Position numbers and translations under genes: made by a program. Of a stretch of 64,000 bases of DNA, positions 1-21,007 are shown one piece after another. Source of the DNA: Haliotis rufescens (lineage: Eukaryota); contig NW_025964002.1 in the NCBI RefSeq assembly GCF_023055435.1, forward strand, positions 1,178,001-1,242,000. Direction: 5' to 3'. The notes under the pieces were generated by a model. The model was not told where the DNA came from and did not search any database. It saw nothing but the letters and a program-made list of their open reading frames with translations. Positions within the stretch are counted from its first letter, which is position 1. The number at the start of each line of letters is the position of its first letter.

Positions 1-2230
1 ATGGTCCATCCTGTGCAGGGCAACCTACATGACTTGATCACATGACTACCCTTGACGCGTTATTTTTCTTTTGCAGAACTATCAGGCTAGAGGAGCTGTG
101 ATGCAGGGATCGTCGGGAGGGCATACAGCTTGTGAGATAGGATAAGGATACAAATATACGCGGGACAAGCAGGACAACAGGATGGACCAATTTGCTGCTG
201 ACACATTTCGCAGATTCGCTAACATCCTTGGAGGCGGAGAACGACATGGTGTATCTGGAGGAGAACTTCAATCCTCCCACCCATGACTTCACGGAGATCA
301 CGCTTGGCAGGCACGAACTCTGTCACTCTCTCTTCTGCTGTTCCTCCAATTGTCTTAGATGTAGTCGAAGTAGATCGACAGACACCTTGGGATGGGTGTC
401 ACGTGTAATGTCTTGAATCTGGAGAGACTGACTTGACCAAGGGAGCCGGCACAGGCATGCCTTAAAGGGATCGTCCCATTGATCTTGTTGAAGGACACCT
501 TGGCGTCGAAGGGCTGTAAGAGCAGGTCAAACATGGTTTCAGTCCCCGAGAGGACAGTGAAAATCAAAGGGAGCATAACGATGGTATCCAGATGAGCCAG
601 ATGGAAGTCCTCCACAGAAGTCATTGTAAGGCTGGGACTGGTAACTCAGGTACTCAATCGGGTGTGTACTGAGAAGGATCTGGGTACCCACAGGGCAACC
701 AGGACCCGTGGTTAGTCACCTGATATATTGTTTAATGGCAAAAATGACCTAAAGTTCACATTCACTTTTATATGTTTAAATAAAGAATAAATTTCAGTCA
801 GCTTCAGTGTATGTATGACCATATCATATTATACATGTAGCTAAATACATTTTGCCAGGACTACGGTCAAACTATTCCTAATCGTAAATTTTGTAACTAT
901 CTCTTGAGGCTGACAGCCGGGTTCCCGGGATGGGTGGTGTAATAGAGGGGTGGGTACCTCGGTAGTAAATTTGGACTCGTCCAAGCTCTAATCACTTGGG
1001 ACAAAGGGTCAACATCCCCATCCAGGTCAGGAGCTCTAGCAAAGCTGAGACAGTCCATGTGTGCAGGATTCTTCCACACGAACACGTGGAGGCTGCAGCC
1101 GATCCCGCAATCAGTCATGACAGGCCTGGGAGGGAGCGTTAGGTTCAAGGAAGTCAAGCTGTCAAGAAGAGGTACCACCGGCAGTCTGGAGCGATCCTGG
1201 AAGGCAGAAGTCACAGACTGCAGGAACAATTCTAGGTTCGACGCAGGAATATTATCCAGGTTGCGATGGTCCCAGGAGGTAAGTAGCAGTTGAGTTGGTG
1301 ACGGGATCGTCGTAGAAGGACGCAGTGCAGATGACCGGGAATGATTAGGTGAGTGGCGATCCACACAATCGTGGAGTAGAGGGGAACAGCGATCGTGATC
1401 CAAGGTAGTTCCAGAAGAGGAGAGCGGTAGTAATGAACAGGGGAGAGGAAGTACAAAAAAGACGAAGCATACAGGTACCCATGCTAGTGAGGAGACGGGT
1501 CCATACGTAACATGAAAGTCCTGTTGATGACGATTCTACGTTGATCTGAATAACCTGAGGACAGGGAGTGACACCAGGTCAGAGGAGCCATCCTCTAAAT
1601 CATGTTCAGCGGGAGTGGTACAAGATGAATCTGTAGTGTTTGTGCGAAAGCATCGATGCAGAGAGGGTCGTTACTCCAATTGTTGATCCTGAGATGGTCA
1701 ATCCTCCAACTGTGGATAGCAAGAGTGTCAATCCCGAGTACAACCAGGTGATCTGGAACAACGATCCTCCGACTGTTGAACAATAGGTGAGCGATCCTTA
1801 GAGCGCCACTCCTGCAAGCAACTATTCTTGGAACGGTGGCCCTTGGAAGAAGCGATCCATCAATCCTTAGTAGAGGGTGGACCTGTTCGACCAATCCCAG
1901 GGAAAGTCGTACTCGTCACTTTGATGGAGGAGTGCCAGTATCTTTGGATGAAGAGAAACGAGCATCACTAGCTGAAATATCACATAAGAAGTGACAGATG
2001 AACGAGGGGTGGTAAGAGGGTCGACCGGGGACACAGTCAAAGCCGACTTGGGGAAATCGACGGAGGAAAGAACCTTGCGAACGTCCGATGTAGCTGGTTG
2101 TTCCAACAGAGGCACGGACCCGGTCATATCAGGAACGGACTGTTGAACTTGAACTGACACAGTAGAGACGAGTATCAGGAGGGTCCGAAGTAGAGAAGGT
2201 AGTTCTACAGTTCAGGAAGCCTGGGCGATG
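1..2230 (-). mobile_element. Decayed GC-richer coding-like segment, probably a retroelement ORF1/gag remnant, in TRIP13 intron 7
   Basis: Minus-strand Ser/Arg/Pro-rich frame (e.g. SKGHRSKN..RSKDRSP..) broken by TGA/TAA stops consistent with CpG decay; interrupted by a MITE at 627-990. No diagnostic domain recognised. Confidence 0.3.
627..990. mobile_element. Degenerate copy of the hAT-like MITE at 8028-8420, opposite orientation
   Basis: Ends taaggctgggac... and ...gtccaagctcta, and internal ctgggtacccacag...atatattgtttaatg, match the reverse complement of the 8028-8420 element. Confidence 0.65.
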
Positions 2231-13166: not shown

Positions 13167-14009
13167 CTGGTACCTGCCGTAAAGGAATACCTGCTGCCAA
13201 AAATCACATATGACTATTTTACGACATATTAAAATGGATTTTTGTTGTAATTTTACGAACCTGAACAATTATTAATGCAAAACTTAACCAATTCTTTAGA
13301 TGTTGAGGTCAATAACATATGAACAAGAATGAATATGTTAATTAAACAACGTCTAAAATGAAAACTTCAATTTACGACAATAGCAAGGGAACCTACTCGT
13401 CCGAACACATACTGCGCATTGATGGTGTGTATTGATGAGTGCGTCGTAAACGGTTTGGATTTTACGTGTGCATCTCCTAATACTTTAATAAATTATTTAT
13501 AACTCCATGGCTGGGAATAAAAAGAATGTTGAAAGTAAAAAAATATGTTTAATAGCATATCCTGAATTTTTATGAATAAACATTAAAATAACAATGTTTT
13601 TAATAACTATTTTCTTATTATTTAAAATCGGGCCAGTTATTGTGTTTACTTATTGAGTTTGCGTACCGACCCGTGGGATCTGTGTTAGAATAAATCCCCA
13701 ACATTCTATAGCTTGTCTTCAAAGCCTGCTAAGTTTAGTCTGGTGGTGGGACCCTGTGAGTTGGCTGACCCTGTGACACGGGGTGTTAGTGCTTATATCT
13801 CACCAAGATTTGATTATTTACAGACTGCCTTGATACAGCTGAATATTACTGACTGTGGTTGCGGCCTAAAACAACAACCAAACGTACCACCCACCACTTC
13901 AACGTTGAGCAAAACACCAAATTATTTGTCCCTTAAGGTATCTGTTAGAAACTATTTCCATTGACTCTTTGTCTCTTTCGAAAACATGCCAAATGAAGTA
14001 GGATAGATG

Positions 14010-14273
14010 CACGGTGCACAGAGGACCCTATAGCTATCGCCCAAGGCAGAGTTGCGTCCCTTAGGCGTGCCAGAATCCTATGGTCGTGGGTTCGAATCCC
14101 AGATTCACCCTGTATATATATGTTTCTGGGTTTGTCAGCACCACACCAGCTCTAGTGCGTTTCGCCAAAGTGGAAACATAAGGACTACATTGGTTCTGGG
14201 TTTTCTCCCCGATGAATCTGACACGCCGTGATGTAACTGAAATACTGGCCAAAGTGTGTTAAACCAAACTCAC
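14010..14273 (+). mobile_element. SINE family B
   Basis: B-box GGTTCGAATCCC followed by the family B body and tail. Confidence 0.8.
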
Positions 14274-14769
14274 TAGTATATCAAATGAATGCGCCAATTT
14301 CAAACCACCGCAAAATGCACTGAACCTGTCAAAATACATTTGTCGTTTCTCGTCACTTTTAAAACTTCTATATTTGATTAGTTTTTTGTGATAGATATCT
14401 TCCCGCTTCCTAATGGAATACATGTGCAGTGAGAAATGGATTAACAAACAGAAATATGTTGGAAAAAAAGAGGGGTGCTCACTAAGCAGGTTTATACAGA
14501 GCGTGCATCCGTGACCTAATCACTTGTATACTGCCAGGCAAAAGAAAGTATACACTTGAAAATTGGATTTGACCAAAACATTACAAGCGCTCTCAAAAAG
14601 GTACTAGGTTAATAAAACAGTCGCCGAAATACTGTAAACTAGAGGTCTAAAACACAACTATGATACCCGTATATATCAAATATATCTCCATCCCAAAACC
14701 ATTTCTTGTAGCCACCATCAAAGACGCGTGTATACTTTCTTTTACCCGGCAGTTTATGTTGAATAAGAT

Positions 14770-14965
14770 TGATTGATTGTTTGTTGTTTAACGCCGCACT
14801 CGGAAATATTCCAGCCATATGACGGCGGTCTGTAAATAATCGAGTCTGGACCAGACAATCCAGTGATTGATATCCTGAAGATCGATCCACGCAATTGGGA
14901 TACGATGACATGCATCAACCCAGTCAGCGAGCCTGACCACCCGATGCAGTTAGTCGCCTCTTACA
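14770..14965 (-). mobile_element. SINE-like family C (AAAC tail)
   Basis: Homologous to copies at about 13668-13885(+), 31748-31885(-), 35435-35556(-), 35612-35857(+), 39065-39250(+), 47305-47577(+) and 57207-57568(+). Confidence 0.85.
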
Positions 14966-15342
14966 AATGCACTTGCGTTTTCAGTCATCATGTTAGGCAT
15001 ATGCAGATTATTACCCGAGTATATTTCCGCACAGTAAATATGACATATTCGGAATAAAAATTGTATTATACCAGCCTTGGCGCGTAATGCATATATTCTA
15101 TTAGAGATATATGATATTTACAATGCAGAATTCGCTCGAGTAATAATCTATTTATCATATAATGTAATTCTTAAAATATTCGATGTTTACGACGTAATTT
15201 CGCTCACCGATGTAACAGTTTATGAATGAATATATATGCAATGCATATTCGTCTGACGCGCCGCGATTTTCTATGCAGCATCGCGTTCATAAGAAACCGG
15301 TCAACTGGGTTTCTTTGATAGGCGTTTAGAAGTTGGAGTACT

Positions 15343-15500
15343 GAGTAAGGATAAGAATTTATGGATGAACAACTTCTTTATTACAATTAAGAATGACGTT
15401 TCGGCGAAGGTTCTAACACCGTTGTCAAGCAAGTACGATGATAACGTCGCTCTTAGTTGTAATAAAGAAGTTGTTCATCCATAAATTCTTATTCTTACTC
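15343..15500. mobile_element. Fold-back Penelope-like terminal-repeat remnant with a degenerate hammerhead core
   Basis: 58-bp inverted arms with 4 mismatches; minus strand TTGACAA-c-stemII-GAAACGTC followed by AATAAAGAAGTTG. Confidence 0.6.
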
Positions 15501-16144
15501 GATTAACTAGGGTTTGAGACTCGCCCTATTTTTAAAAAAAAATTCAGCACCATATCTATTCTTGTGGATTTCACCAAAGTGATATCTAATTCCGACTTGC
15601 ATCACTTTGGGCTTTCATCGAGCATCAACCTGACATGCCGTGATGTAACTGAAATACTGTTTCAATTGGCATGAAACTCACTCACTCACTCACTCACTGT
15701 ATGGGACTCAGTCTGAGCCAGTACATTAATTGCCTACCTTCTACATACAGTTAAGTGGCACGATTCAAGTCGTTCTGAGACCACGTTGTTATTGGCCAAC
15801 TCAAACTTTACTGTTTTTATCAATCTAACAACCATAATTACTATGATTACACAAAGAATGTCTCAGTTACACATATATCCATGCGTGGCATTAACATTAA
15901 ACCTATATCGAAAGAGGCCAACCGACTGGTAGTGTTTAACTGCAAGCAAAGACATTTTTGGCCCATTTGGCGTGTCTATCTAAGCAAAATTATGTTGGGC
16001 AACATATCGCACTTAATTCGTTCATGCAAAGACGTATATACGTCTTTGGTTCATGCCATGCACCGTTTGTCTGTCATGCAGTTCTGAATCACGACCACAA
16101 ATAACCCACAGGCCAGCTAACAGCTGATCGAAGCTTCCGTGTGG

Positions 16145-16169
16145 CAGTCATATGACTGGTCACGTGACC
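16145..16169. promoter_or_regulatory. Two abutting palindromic extended E-boxes (CLEAR-type GTCACGTGAC plus GTCATATGAC variant)
   Basis: CAGTCATATGACTG (16145-16158) shares one base with GGTCACGTGACC (16158-16169), in a locally CpG-rich stretch about 150 bp upstream of a candidate first exon. Confidence 0.6.
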
Positions 16170-16315
16170 GCTAGTATGGCAGATAGAACTCCCACCATGG
16201 CTGGTGGTGGAGGCTCGCTACATTACACAATTGTACTTTGAAACGTGACGGTAGAAAACCCGGGATTCCCCAGTGTCAACTGACCAAAGTCCAGATCCAC
16301 CGTGGCTTCGACATC

Positions 16316-16340
16316 ATGAGCGAAAGTTCGACTGGCGAAG
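16316..16340 (+). CDS. Candidate first coding exon A of an unidentified + strand gene (MSESSTGE-G)
   Basis: atcATGA start, strong donor AAG|GTAGGT, phase 1, CpG-rich promoter-like context. Confidence 0.6.
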
Positions 16341-17193
16341 GTAGGTGGACTTTGCCTGACTCGACTTATCAACTTGAGCTGCGGAGAGTTCGCTTGTTGC
16401 TAGCTGTTTTCTTCATACTGTTCGCGACTCTGCCGGCGTTATCAATCTAGATCACCTACTTCGCGACGCAGAGACACTGTGTCATGGTGGCGCATAACCT
16501 TGGACATGATATTGCTGTGAAATATGTTTAAATCAAGGGACCGTATGCCTAATATTGGCTGCACGATCGTGTTGTTTACATCCCGAGTGGATGAGCGCAA
16601 TAGGCCTACCATGTGCTGTCAAGTATGACTGACAAGAATAGCTAGTGTATTACAAATCCCTCGAAGGTTCATTAGCGATCTTTGGTGCGATTTCATGGTC
16701 AGTGAGCGCAGTTAATAGGTCGAACTAAAACAAGCCACTTATCATCTACCTGTTGACAGCGACTAACTGACCCGGTTACACAATGTTATGGTGTGGGTGG
16801 AGGTCTGGTTGGGGTCATGACCTCGAGTGAAGCAGATGACGCCAGCAGGGGATGGGATAATTTTACACGGAAACTTTTTGTAAGAGAATGAACTGAAACC
16901 AGCTACAATCAATGTGACACTGTTTCTTCTCAATTTAGCTCAGATGATGAGAAGGAGATTATGTTCTCGTGGTAGATATAACTTGTTGCAGTTTGTGGTC
17001 AGAAGCAGAGATGATTATTTCATTGCTTGTCAACTTATAAGACAAGTACTGTAAATGATGCAATCAGTTTTTGATAAACCCAAAGCATTCAAGCAACATT
17101 TTAATGGAACCATATTGTCTGACTTTCACTGGGAAAGCAATTCTGTCTTACCATACTCATCTTGACGTACGGACAAATCTATTGATTTATTTT

Positions 17194-17386
17194 TTTAAGG
17201 AAGAGAATTTCTGGATGTCAACTTCTTTATAATGAGGAACACAACGTTTCGGTGTAGATGCTTACTCCTTCATCAGGTGAATAAATGCTTTGAAGCAGAG
17301 AACCATTATATGTTCCTGTAAGAGCAACAGAAGTAATAAAATAAGAAAAGGTAGAAAGTGACATCAAAGAAATTCTCTTCCTTAAA
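17194..17386. mobile_element. Fold-back Penelope-like terminal-repeat remnant containing the hammerhead
   Basis: About 27-bp inverted arms at 17194-17220 and 17359-17386; shares aaagaagttg..catcca.aaattct with the 15343 element. Confidence 0.55.
17237..17282 (-). ncRNA. Minimal type I hammerhead ribozyme motif (Penelope-type)
   Basis: cac-CUGAUGA-a-ggagua(agcauc)uacacc-GAAAC-GUU-gug: intact core, stem II 5/6 bp, 3-bp stem I, palindromic ACGU in place of stem III. Confidence 0.65.
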
Positions 17387-18699
17387 TGCATGTGTATCAC
17401 TTCTGAATGCCATTCAAAGACTTTATTTGTTTGTTTCCATGGTTATATGTCTCCAAAAGAGTATAAGTGGTGGGAGTCAGCTGATCATTTCTGCATCCGA
17501 GAAGCAGTAGGCCAAGTGTTGGTATGTGGAAGAAGGAATTGTTGACTGAAAGATGTAGTTAGGGAACAGGTTGACGTGAACACCTGCTTGTTGTCAGACA
17601 TCACGATACAGTACCTTGTAACTTGTAACTTATCACAGTCTGTACCAGGACTTGTCAGTCCACTCGCCCCAATGTTTCTCTTGCCATCTTTTTGAGTAGA
17701 TTTTATTATTTATATATAGACTGTTATTAGCTTCTCCTACTAGACGATTTTACTAGACACGGGCTTCGGACCAGTTGCTCAAGATGCAGACTGTGTCTTA
17801 GTGATCAGATTAACACAAGAACCAGTCAGACAGTCCAAAATGATCTGAGGTCAACTATAGCATTCAATATTACTGGTATGATAAGATTTATTTTGGGAAT
17901 GCTTTTGACTGGACCCTGCCATTTTATAAAGTGATACAATTTTATTATACTTCTTTTTTATCTTTTATAACAGTTTTGTATATTTGTCTTGTCAGCCTCC
18001 ATAATCACCTGCCCTATTAATATTTGACTCCCTTTGTTCACCCCCCCCATCCCCCCACCCCCACTAAACACCCACATGCACTGTTGCTGATGTTGGGTCA
18101 TTCAATGTTCAGTCATGAGTGTGGCATTGCTTCTGCCTCTCTGTGGGTGCAAGAATTAGCACCGACATGCAGTATTTGGGTGCATGGCTTCCAAACCAAA
18201 CGAACCTCTTGTAAACATAACATGCACTTGTGACAGGCACATTTGTCAACATGCTCCTCGCATTGCATGTCACCATCATTACCCTTTACATTAGACCTCA
18301 AAGAACGAGGGACAACACTGTAAGGAGCTTTGTTGCAAAGCTTGGAGATAAGGTGAGGTGAAATGGGGTTTAACATCGCATACAAGATTATTGCACTTTA
18401 ATGGCGACTTGCATGCACGTGTGTGTGAATGCTGAATGCCAGGCAGGATGACAAGTACCATCTTTTAATGTCTTTTGTTATGACGCATCTGGAGATCAAC
18501 CACCAACCTTTAGCTCTATGAGCAGACTCACAATCCACTAGACCACGGAGGCTGTCGCACAACTTGGAAGTAGATGTGTCGATTACCATACCTGAATGTA
18601 ATAGTTTGCAGGGAAGCTCTCATATGGCATGTCCGATAATCAGCGATGTAATATGGGCATGGGTTTAGGACACTTTGGACCCAAACAAGCATTAAAAAC

Positions 18700-19170
18700 G
18701 ACAATACGTGAAAATTCCTGTGTAACACTATCAGACTTCCATCCATTATCCTGAGAATCACTGTGCCGAACAGTATGTCGCGTTTTTGTCAAGAAGAGTG
18801 TTTTAAGCTTCCTTGGGTTGTGAAGGACCCCATATCATTAATGACAGTATGTCTGTTGTTCATGCTGTCAACCACTGGATTGCCTGGCGCTGACTATTTC
18901 CAAATGGCGTGATGCAGATGTAAAATTGCTGCTGGTGTCTGTATAATAGTCTGGTCCAGACATACCAGTGGCTATGCAACATCCCACGCTGTCCATTTTT
19001 GTGGACTCTTACTGATATAGTGGAAACATTATTCCAAATCCCATGATTCATGTGTATCCCTCTATCTGCTGCCTGAACCAGGCCTGTACCCTGCAGAGTT
19101 AGGTTCCTTGGTATTTATGATCCACTGGTGAAGGGTTCGACTTTGCCATTTCCCCTGATTATGAACTTTG
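18700..19170 (-). mobile_element. Possible heavily decayed LTR-retrotransposon RT fragment
   Basis: Fragmentary motifs (…CITPFG…, …VINDM…) reminiscent of Gypsy RT; frames are broken. Confidence 0.2.
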
Positions 19171-19175
19171 TGTCA

Positions 19176-19375
19176 TTACCTTACCCCTAATAAGGTACCT
19201 TTTCCTTTGACATGATCCTCCAGGCTGACCGGTCCCTGTTTTAGCTCCTTATTGCAGAGCGTCAGGCAGGGTAACAACAAGTACCATCTTTGAACATCTT
19301 TTGGTATGATGCAGCCAGGGATCAAACCCTGGACCTTCCGCTCTCCGGGCGGATGCTCTACCACTAAACCAGTTC
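19176..19375 (-). mobile_element. tRNA-derived SINE, family D (core resembles the MetaSINE domain, from memory)
   Basis: tRNA-like head then ataccaaaagatgttcaaagatggtacttgttg; related copies at about 18398-18555(-) and 61480-61585(+). Confidence 0.6.
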
Positions 19376-21007
19376 AGAACCATTGCTTCAGAAATGGAAC
19401 TGATCCCACAGAAATGTCTGCCATGACATAGCATCAGTAAAAGATTTTACACCTTTTTTATCGCAAAATATTTCACCCTGTTCTGTCTTTTCATTCTGTA
19501 TAAGGTGAACAAAGTAAGGAGATAGACAATTCATATTTTCCACTAACCAGTTCTGGACCACTTCTAACATGGGTCCTCTTTCACACTGAGCAGCATTTGT
19601 CTCCAGGACCAGCGTTTGTCGGCGCCTTGTACCAGTTGTTATAAGATGACAAGTGGCAGTCAAAAAGCATTACGCTGCAGTCAACAACTTCCTCTTCAGT
19701 TTCTCCCTCTTCGATCCTGGATTCATCAAGTAGAACATTATTATGGTGTGCTACGGTGGAGTGTTTTCATGCTTTTATATGTCAGATATGAGACACGGTT
19801 GATGTTTGACCTTGAACAAAGTGAGCTTAAAAAGGAAGCGACACTTGGTCGGTTCTGGAATGTCCGAAGATGGGAGATGCTCCAGAGGGAAGAGTTCCTG
19901 AGTTCAGAGAGGAAGTATGGATGTGTCACGAGGGTACACTTCCTACACTGTGTGTACACGAGGGTACACTTGACAAATGAATGTAAAACACTGAAGAGGT
20001 TTCTGTACAAGTTTTTGAACAAGCTGTTTTGATGTGATGTGATTTTTTTTTACGGAAATACAAATTGTTCGGTAATAACCACTTGCTTGGTGATACCCAA
20101 CACAGCTCAACATTATATACCAGAGTTCATAAGCAGGATAAACTCAAAACTTTTTGTTTCTGTTTTAAATGAAGCTTTAAGATATTCATTCCAAGGCTTG
20201 TGCTCGATGGACATGATTCAGATCCTGTTTGTTATTTCCTGTTTGTGGGTTGCGATCCCCGGAGCCTGTCATGATGATAAATGTTTGATAGGAAGGACCT
20301 GCATTGACTTCACTATGTTATATTATATCAAATTCATGTGAGTCATACAGTTTCTTAAGAACTTCTTTGATTAAAGGTAAATATATAACACATATTATAA
20401 AAAATGAAAAACCCACCATGTTTTCTGTCCCTTGACAAGTATTTCTTTTTTACTTGCTAAACTTGTGCAGGTACAGTGTTGTAATGGGTCGACAATATTG
20501 TGTCCTATACACTTAAAAGTAGGAATTGACGCAAATAATAACAACCTTGAGTCCCATTGGATGCAAAAGTGTATGGATGTTGGAATAAGATTGAAGCACA
20601 TGCGGAATATTTTGGTGATATTTCTGTTCTTATAAGAAATACTGTCAAAATGTTCGGACAGTCCATTTAAGATTTTTCTTCTTTCAGTCATAAAGTTTTA
20701 ATTCAAACAAGGAAATCCCAATATATAATACACTTACTGTATCACGCATACTTTGAATGTTTGTTGTTGTGGTTCAGTGGTCAATCTTAATGCTGGAAAC
20801 CTTCCTAAGCACTCACAACCATATATAGACCAATGGGAGTCTGTTAGACCTGTATTTTGTCTAATTAGGCAACATACATTACAGTCATAAGGAGTTGTTA
20901 GGGGTGTAGTAGCGTAATCAAAATATCAGGATTACAGTTTTGTAACCAATCCTTGGATTAGCCTGGAGATTTATGCAGAGTCAGCCTATACATGGAAGAA
21001 AGAATGT

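Follow-up and report, generated by a model that had tools for sequence, protein, structure and literature searches.

A hammerhead-bearing fold-back in Haliotis rufescens as the probable truncated 3' end of a Penelope/Poseidon-type retrotransposon

A 64,000-nt stretch of the Haliotis rufescens genome (contig NW_025964002.1, positions 1,178,001 to 1,242,000; hereafter the window) contained a hammerhead core on its minus strand, enclosed in a short fold-back element. The question raised by this locus was whether the fold-back represented a small mobile unit in its own right or the remnant of a larger element. We considered it very likely (probability about 0.92) that the window element was the 5'-truncated and 5'-inverted 3' end, or pseudo-LTR (pLTR), of an abundant EN+ retrotransposon of the Penelope/Poseidon type, and that it carried an ordinary minimal ribozyme that was likely inactive here. 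This reading followed from collinearity with reverse transcriptase (RT) and GIY-YIG endonuclease (EN) sequences, two shared 3' ends, variable 5' ends, a one-sided tail and decay of the motif at the rate of its flanks.

The hammerhead motif and its conservation

Direct inspection of minus strand positions 17279-17240 gave CAC-CUGAUGA-A-GGAGUA-AGCAUC-UACACC-GAAAC-GUU-GUG. The elements CUGANGA, GAAA and NUH and the palindromic ACGU were all present in the window copy, and the GUU cleavage triplet ended at 17243. Thus, a core with a short stem I and ACGU in place of stem III, which had been proposed from the sequence alone (the sequence-only reading), was confirmed, and the sequence that this reading placed beyond the hammerhead, AUAAAGAAGUUG, was found at 17230-17219 of the same strand. 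The parts of the motif were the following.

17240..17279, minus strand: minimal type I hammerhead, identified from its sequence, the column counts in 53 copies and 113 metagenomic motifs of the same architecture with other stem letters
17279-17277 / 17242-17240, minus strand: stem I, 3 bp
17276-17270, minus strand: core CUGAUGA
17269, minus strand: unpaired A before stem II
17268-17263 / 17256-17251, minus strand: stem II, with an A-A mismatch at 17266/17253
17250-17247, minus strand: GAAA
17247-17244, minus strand: palindromic ACGU
after 17243, minus strand: predicted cut
17301..17306, minus strand: segment complementary to loop II (UAUGCU or UAUGUU in the family, degraded in the window copy), candidate pseudoknot

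The claimed stem II stood in part, since both of its strands were in place but the A-A mismatch interrupted them in the window copy; the corresponding column was an A-U pair in 44 of the 53 genomic copies. A search with hammerhead models, also suggested by the sequence-only reading, turned up no hammerhead family match in Rfam (window 15000-20000, E<=10). Moreover, a loose core pattern occurred six times in the 64-kb window, so the reality of the motif rests on family and class evidence. When the 47-nt hammerhead was folded alone, the drawn structure was not obtained (z +1.06), and the predicted probability of stem II was 0.01 for the window copy versus 0.54-0.99 for the four other copies folded. 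The ribozyme of the window copy was likely inactive according to these predictions: it would not cut since it was single, had a mismatch in stem II and lay antisense to the likely host transcript. No neighbouring core was available as a dimer partner. Additionally, a UUCAUU just 5' of the core, seen in the window (minus strand 17285-17269) and in family copies, can pair with GAUGAA; in predicted monomers this fold-back onto the core was a possible off state.

Conservation within the genome was assessed on an alignment of 53 distinct copies spanning the region (55 hits, of which two identical ones were dropped). Rather than a random sample, the examined copies were the 30-53 with the highest scores among more than 1,600. 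Stem II mostly formed six perfect pairs. The whole core was kept in 27 of the 53 copies, all of stem II in 28 and stem I in 45, and the core and both stems were intact together in 13. Selection on the core was considered and rejected, with a column conservation of 0.93 for the core compared to 0.94 for the other columns (0.91 for stem II, 0.96 for stem I). Such decay of core and stems at the rate of the flanks fits copies that were dead on arrival. Of 136 columns, 15 differed between the window copy and the family majority, some of them in stem II, against a family mean of 5%, which was in line with neutral decay of its sequence.

Evidence for the motif as a class came from a pattern scan of metagenome contigs, which gave at least 120 loci and 113 distinct motifs for analysis. 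Among the matches listed, stem II averaged 5.75 bp compared to 2.74 in shuffles and stem I 2.69 compared to 1.06 with swapped partners, values that overstate independence because many of the metagenomic sequences were kin. The base before the cut was C or U in 106 of these 113 listed motifs. Sister families in the same genome also had different stem II letters. Covariation of the stems, proposed earlier as a check, was therefore seen across the metagenomic motifs, many of them related, but hardly within the window family, where a double change was present in only one of 53 copies. Since the stems were kept with differing letters across families, the sequence comparison identified the motif as a true minimal hammerhead.

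In the window family, a hexamer approximately 25 nt upstream of the core was complementary to loop II. At every one of its six positions, pairing was possible in 43-51 of the 53 copies. The two C/U variants at the family level each faced a G, so that the pairing would survive as G-U. However, neighbouring wobble pairs would arise in one common haplotype, and no compensatory change was found in the 53 copies. Among the matches listed from other families, the mean best loop II pairing was 3.18 nt, compared to 3.06 with swapped partners (reached in 13 of 300 trials, no clear signal) and 3.09 in shuffles (reached in 23 of 300). It seemed doubtful that a loop II pseudoknot allows efficient cutting about 63 nt before the start codon and thereby defines the 5' end of both mRNA and template, unlike in PAc, the Anolis Poseidon element. 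If this were true, the hammerhead of the family would not be truly minimal.

Genomic copies and the autonomous parent

The fold-back noticed by the sequence-only reading was present (MFE -55.2 kcal/mol, z -6.7, 0 of 200 shuffles as stable), although its dimensions required revision. Namely, the arms measured about 33 bp in total rather than ~27 bp, with 19 perfect base pairs (17194-17212 / 17368-17386) extended by 13 bp at 85% (17214-17226 / 17353-17365). Furthermore, the family sequence did not stop at the proposed boundary of 17386 but continued for ~37 bp, to about 17423. The window copy therefore spanned about 17196-17423, with a head-to-head joint at about 17353, and it had neither a promoter region nor an ORF of its own. 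We distinguished these segments.

17196..17352, minus strand: main body, the last ~157 nt of the pLTR / 3' end, 5'-truncated, 83-88% identical to the best genomic copies
17353..17385, plus strand: second arm, an inverted copy of the last ~33 nt of the element, without core (inverted repeats I1 and I11)
17386..17423, plus strand: after a few extra bases, the optional ~33-nt tail of the Penelope-like element (PLE), the same tail being found at the sense end of 9/30 copies
17186..17192 with partner 17422-17428, plus strand: possible 7-bp TSD, TTTATTT, uncertain and read from sequence only

The main body ended, without a tail, at the shorter of two family 3' ends; the other best genomic copies ended at query positions 6-18, mostly 11-15. 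The tail of the window copy was located on the inverted end only, and the loose ends of 26 contigs fell at 17423. Relative to the GAAAC anchor in natural long copies, the inverted arm corresponded to +31..+88. As for the TTTATTT repeat, it was of low complexity, its right copy overlapped letters that were possibly element-derived, and no empty site was seen.

A genome search with the window element returned at least 1,673 first-look candidates, which verified that the element was multi-copy. Forty of these were scored and were 83-88% identical. The scored matches shared the left end of the query and stopped before its right arm (query 155-194), and none of the other 39 scored places had the right arm of the window copy. 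Among 30 loci that were fetched, two 3' end points about 33 nt apart were observed, with the additional stretch, or tail, in nine copies, and the 5' extent, counted upstream from the core GAAAC, varied between 94 and 596 nt. An inverted copy of the 3' end lay upstream in seven of the 30 loci, the window copy included. These seven arms differed in length and each had its own junction, so that the fixed ends for which the sequence-only reading had proposed a test were not supported. The tail was inverted in six of the 30 copies and was found on both ends in none. Similarly, at least nine of 30 EN loci had inverted partial copies upstream. Candidate numbers by segment (queries of 181-251 nt, first-look counts that are lower bounds) were 1,673 for the 3' end, 565 for EN, 123 for the RT C-terminal part, 22 for the RT N-terminal part, of which 9-10 belonged to the window family, and 7 for the ORF start. 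Such a fall from 3' to 5' was expected from 5' truncation.

At one locus, L117, a local duplication had placed two cores of the same direction 56 nt apart (oriented coordinates about 1626-1761, minus strand); no other fetched locus was noticed to have such a pair.

The longer copies revealed what the window segment had been cut from. The two longest of the 30 continued into the end of an endonuclease ORF, and longer copies ran unbroken into an ORF for a GIY-YIG endonuclease and RT. The main-body segment was collinear downstream of EN and the 3' UTR in L031, L035, L039, L041, L047, L052, L064 and L096/L265, and L265 had RT, EN, 3' UTR, window segment and tail in that order on one strand. This agreed with the earlier suggestion of a Penelope-type pLTR hammerhead. 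The EN motif was present in L018, L034, L039 and L041, and its form YQIPCNCG..YIGET..LKEH in L034, L039, L041, L051 and L056. Pfam made no GIY-YIG call on the three ORFs scanned; the putative endonuclease was assigned from this motif and from a pairwise match to P0015, a carrier of PF01541 (33% identity, E 1e-14). The RT was represented by L073 (417 aa), with an RVT_1 match of E 1e-5, below the Pfam cut-off, and 64% identity to the intact 797-aa RT-EN protein P0001. As a query, L073 retrieved 16 RT proteins at E<=1e-20, and the RT was ~50% identical to proteins labelled Haliotis and Patella. The C-terminus of P0001 was in turn 57% identical to the EN of L034. Together, the EN motif loci and the RT of L073 bore out the expected GIY-YIG/RT parent.

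The window segment followed the EN stop codon and also preceded the ORF N-terminus in L116 and L118. From 17407 the tail translated as MPFKDFI, and the intact relative P0001 began with MPFKNFI. In L116 and L118 the tail continued into the ORF N-terminus, which aligned to P0001 residues 1-57, so the tail likely covers the start codon. A pLTR with its minimal hammerhead at the junction to the ORF was thus present. Measured on natural copies with a tail, the predicted cut was ~63 nt upstream of the ORF start. The sequences of L041, L051, L056 and P0001 showed no Cys cluster between thumb and EN. A Zn-finger-like linker between RT and EN has been described for Neptune and Nematis (PMC8557442), and the lack of a cysteine linker, as in that description, points to a Penelope/Poseidon type; this placement came from reading the sequences. 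The parent was pieced together from overlapping decayed copies, and there was no intact full-length copy of the exact family among the genome-search loci for EN, RT and ORF start. The literature search, confined to listings of papers, found no name for the window PLE family.

Related elements were also observed. A sister PLE family (L104:906-3074, L106 and L107) had an open RT-EN frame of 723 aa and a U3-A8 core, and its RT was 50% identical to that of the window family. Its copies were 87-97% alike, so it looks younger. The window itself contained a second fold-back from a different PLE family at 15349-15500, with 416 candidates. Its hammerhead (15428-15395, minus strand) had the U3-A8 variant core UUGACAA ... 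GAAAC GUC, and stem I was broken in that arm. This variant core has been described previously (PMC4209133).

The region upstream of the window core also had a splice-acceptor-like site, namely a pyrimidine tract ending in UUACAG at 17335-17315 of the minus strand, ~40 nt upstream of the core. The site had AG in 18 and AU in 34 of the 53 copies. Introns that end near the ribozyme are known from PLE pLTRs.

Origin of the fold-back and competing explanations

Published PLE insertions have an inverted 5'-truncated copy by the 5' end and a tail of 30-40 bp at one end only (PMC8557442, PMC3846280). In vitro, PAc cleaved both strands of AT-rich DNA, and its reverse transcription began within the RNA at two adjacent sites, which delimit the tail (PMC11167929). 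By analogy, the protein of the element would have cut AT-rich DNA at the locus, and reverse transcription would have been primed at two neighbouring internal sites of the element RNA. One cDNA may have stopped after ~157 nt; the other, begun at the outer site and hence provided with the tail, may have stopped after ~70 nt, and both short cDNAs would then have been joined head to head. From the sequences compared, we recognized the fold-back arms as the usual inverted 5'-truncated copy and not as terminal repeats of a unit. In an active parent, cleavage by the ribozyme would take place in a dimer or with the help of protein, at a site ~63 nt before the ORF; the PAc hammerhead cuts only with protein and is dispensable for insertion (PMC11167929).

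The sequence-only reading had instead favoured a distinct, retrozyme-like non-autonomous family. In that case, a fold-back of ~190-230 bp would be transcribed, self-cleaved, perhaps circularised and re-inserted by a PLE protein acting in trans. It could be argued that short copies far outnumbered long ones (1,673 vs 7 at the ORF start), that some 5' ends clustered at 103-117 and 151-177 nt, that pLTRs can act in trans (PMC3846280) and that animal retrozymes are traced back to pLTRs in a 2026 preprint (10.64898/2026.07.22.740005). However, clustering of the 5' ends was to be expected when copies were ranked by their similarity to a 157-nt query, and the sample suggested a smooth spread without a recurring junction. 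The 5' ends did not define a fixed unit of 150-450 bp but ranged over 94-596 nt and on into the ORF. Head-to-tail units were likewise absent: 0/30 loci had a second core in the same direction or a tandem unit, and no tandem repeat was detected in window 14000-21000. Three small-RNA runs under another organism label contributed no mapped reads, a count without weight for or against discrete linear or circular RNAs. Considering also that the right arm was private to the window copy among the scored places, that every inverted copy had a different junction, that the core was no better conserved than its flanks and that the segment was collinear with the 3' end of an autonomous element, we found this explanation very unlikely. 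A MITE with a captured hammerhead fragment that targets TTAA, presumably Kolobok/T2- or piggyBac-like, deserved mention because the arms began with TTAAGG and ended with CCTTAA. It had next to no probability, since both arms were the 3' end of the PLE itself, family sequence ran ~37 bp past the right arm and other copies lacked a second arm; collinearity with the RT-EN parent refuted it.

It could also be proposed that a 5'-truncated PLE insertion was later exapted, with a ~33-bp hairpin or the antisense ribozyme acting on the RNA of a host gene. The relevant feature was located upstream of the insertion.

16178-16340, plus strand: likely first exon, with ATG at 16316 and a GTAGGT donor at 16341

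The insertion lay ~850 bp downstream of this exon, and the sequence-only reading had placed it antisense in the first intron of a plus strand gene. The ATG, the donor and one contig (from a run presumed to be RNA) that ended at 16340 were consistent with a first exon, and no second exon was identified. Namely, a splice-site scan with Pfam on 127 plus strand stop-to-stop frames of >=48 aa downstream of 16300 gave 0/127 hits, and there was no splice joint in 15800-20200 among the joints listed. Contigs under two other organism labels, with flanks 2-3% different, crossed the insertion joints (X1 the left junction, X2 the right junction, X15 and X17 the inversion junction), so the insertion was shared rather than recent and private. 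Moreover, a stable hairpin was predicted for 241 nt of the plus strand (-64.6 kcal/mol). On the other hand, sharing at 2-3% divergence was expected for any fixed repeat, and the departures from the family majority, stem II among them, were as in neutral decay. The ribozyme was also antisense to the likely transcript and, if the host gene is real, cannot cut its RNA. Thus, we gave exaptation only a slight chance, and the truncated and inverted PLE 3' end remained our preferred reading.

Other features were noted in the neighbourhood of the insertion. The 101 bases at 18011-18111 were skipped in X1 and X2, which had one organism label, and present in X15 and X17; the ends of this segment were neither GT-AG nor CT-AC, suggesting an indel. 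Very high-copy repeats were located at window 18350-18550 and 19260-19371. Rfam reported a tRNA match of 31.9 bits at 19316-19371 on the minus strand, corresponding to the tRNA-like head of one repeat, and both repeats were probably tRNA-derived SINEs.

Comparison with known systems

The window family resembled described EN+ PLE insertions (PMC8557442; PMC3846280) in its frequent 5' truncation, the adjacent inverted copy and the one-ended tail of 30-40 bp. It also shared with EN+ PLEs a pLTR and tail overlapping the ORF start, and a single ORF with RT followed by a C-terminal GIY-YIG domain. In comparison, all that was left in the window copy was an extreme stump, with 157 nt in sense orientation and ~70 nt inverted. 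Published PLE biology leads one to expect thousands of stumps of this kind in a genome. The shorter 3' end of the family was separated from the start codon by 16 nt, and the tail spanned only the first ~5 codons, unlike in Adineta Pen2a, where the corresponding span was residues 13-22.

Similar to the metazoan PLE hammerheads of Cervera and de la Pena 2014 (PMC4209133), the motif had a palindromic 15.2-16.2 and no stem III, one unpaired base before stem II, a G10.1-C11.1 pair, a long stem II and a short stem I, and it occurred mostly as single dispersed copies with some opposite-strand pairs. Stem I was 3 bp here and 4-5 bp in the schistosome consensus of that paper, and the GUU triplet and the candidate pairing of loop II with an upstream segment were further differences.

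Animal non-LTR retrozymes (Cervera and de la Pena 2020, PMC7229834) were likewise short, ORF-less, PLE-related and equipped with a type I hammerhead. They are described as tandem repeats of 150-450 bp with canonical hammerheads and circular RNAs (PMC7229834; 10.64898/2026.07.22.740005), whereas the window copy consisted of one head-to-head stump and carried a minimal motif.

The closest parallel in the arrangement of the ribozyme was PAc (Frangieh et al. 2024, PMC11167929), in which the hammerhead likewise sits where pLTR and ORF meet, a tail separates two 3' ends and the target is AT-rich. The two 3' ends observed here likely represent the reverse-transcription start sites of a mollusc Poseidon-type family. 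The ORF of PAc starts at stem II and its cut falls 26 nt inside the ORF, whereas in the window family the predicted cut upstream of the start codon would leave the ORF whole. This contrast in the position of the ribozyme bears on what PLE hammerheads are for.
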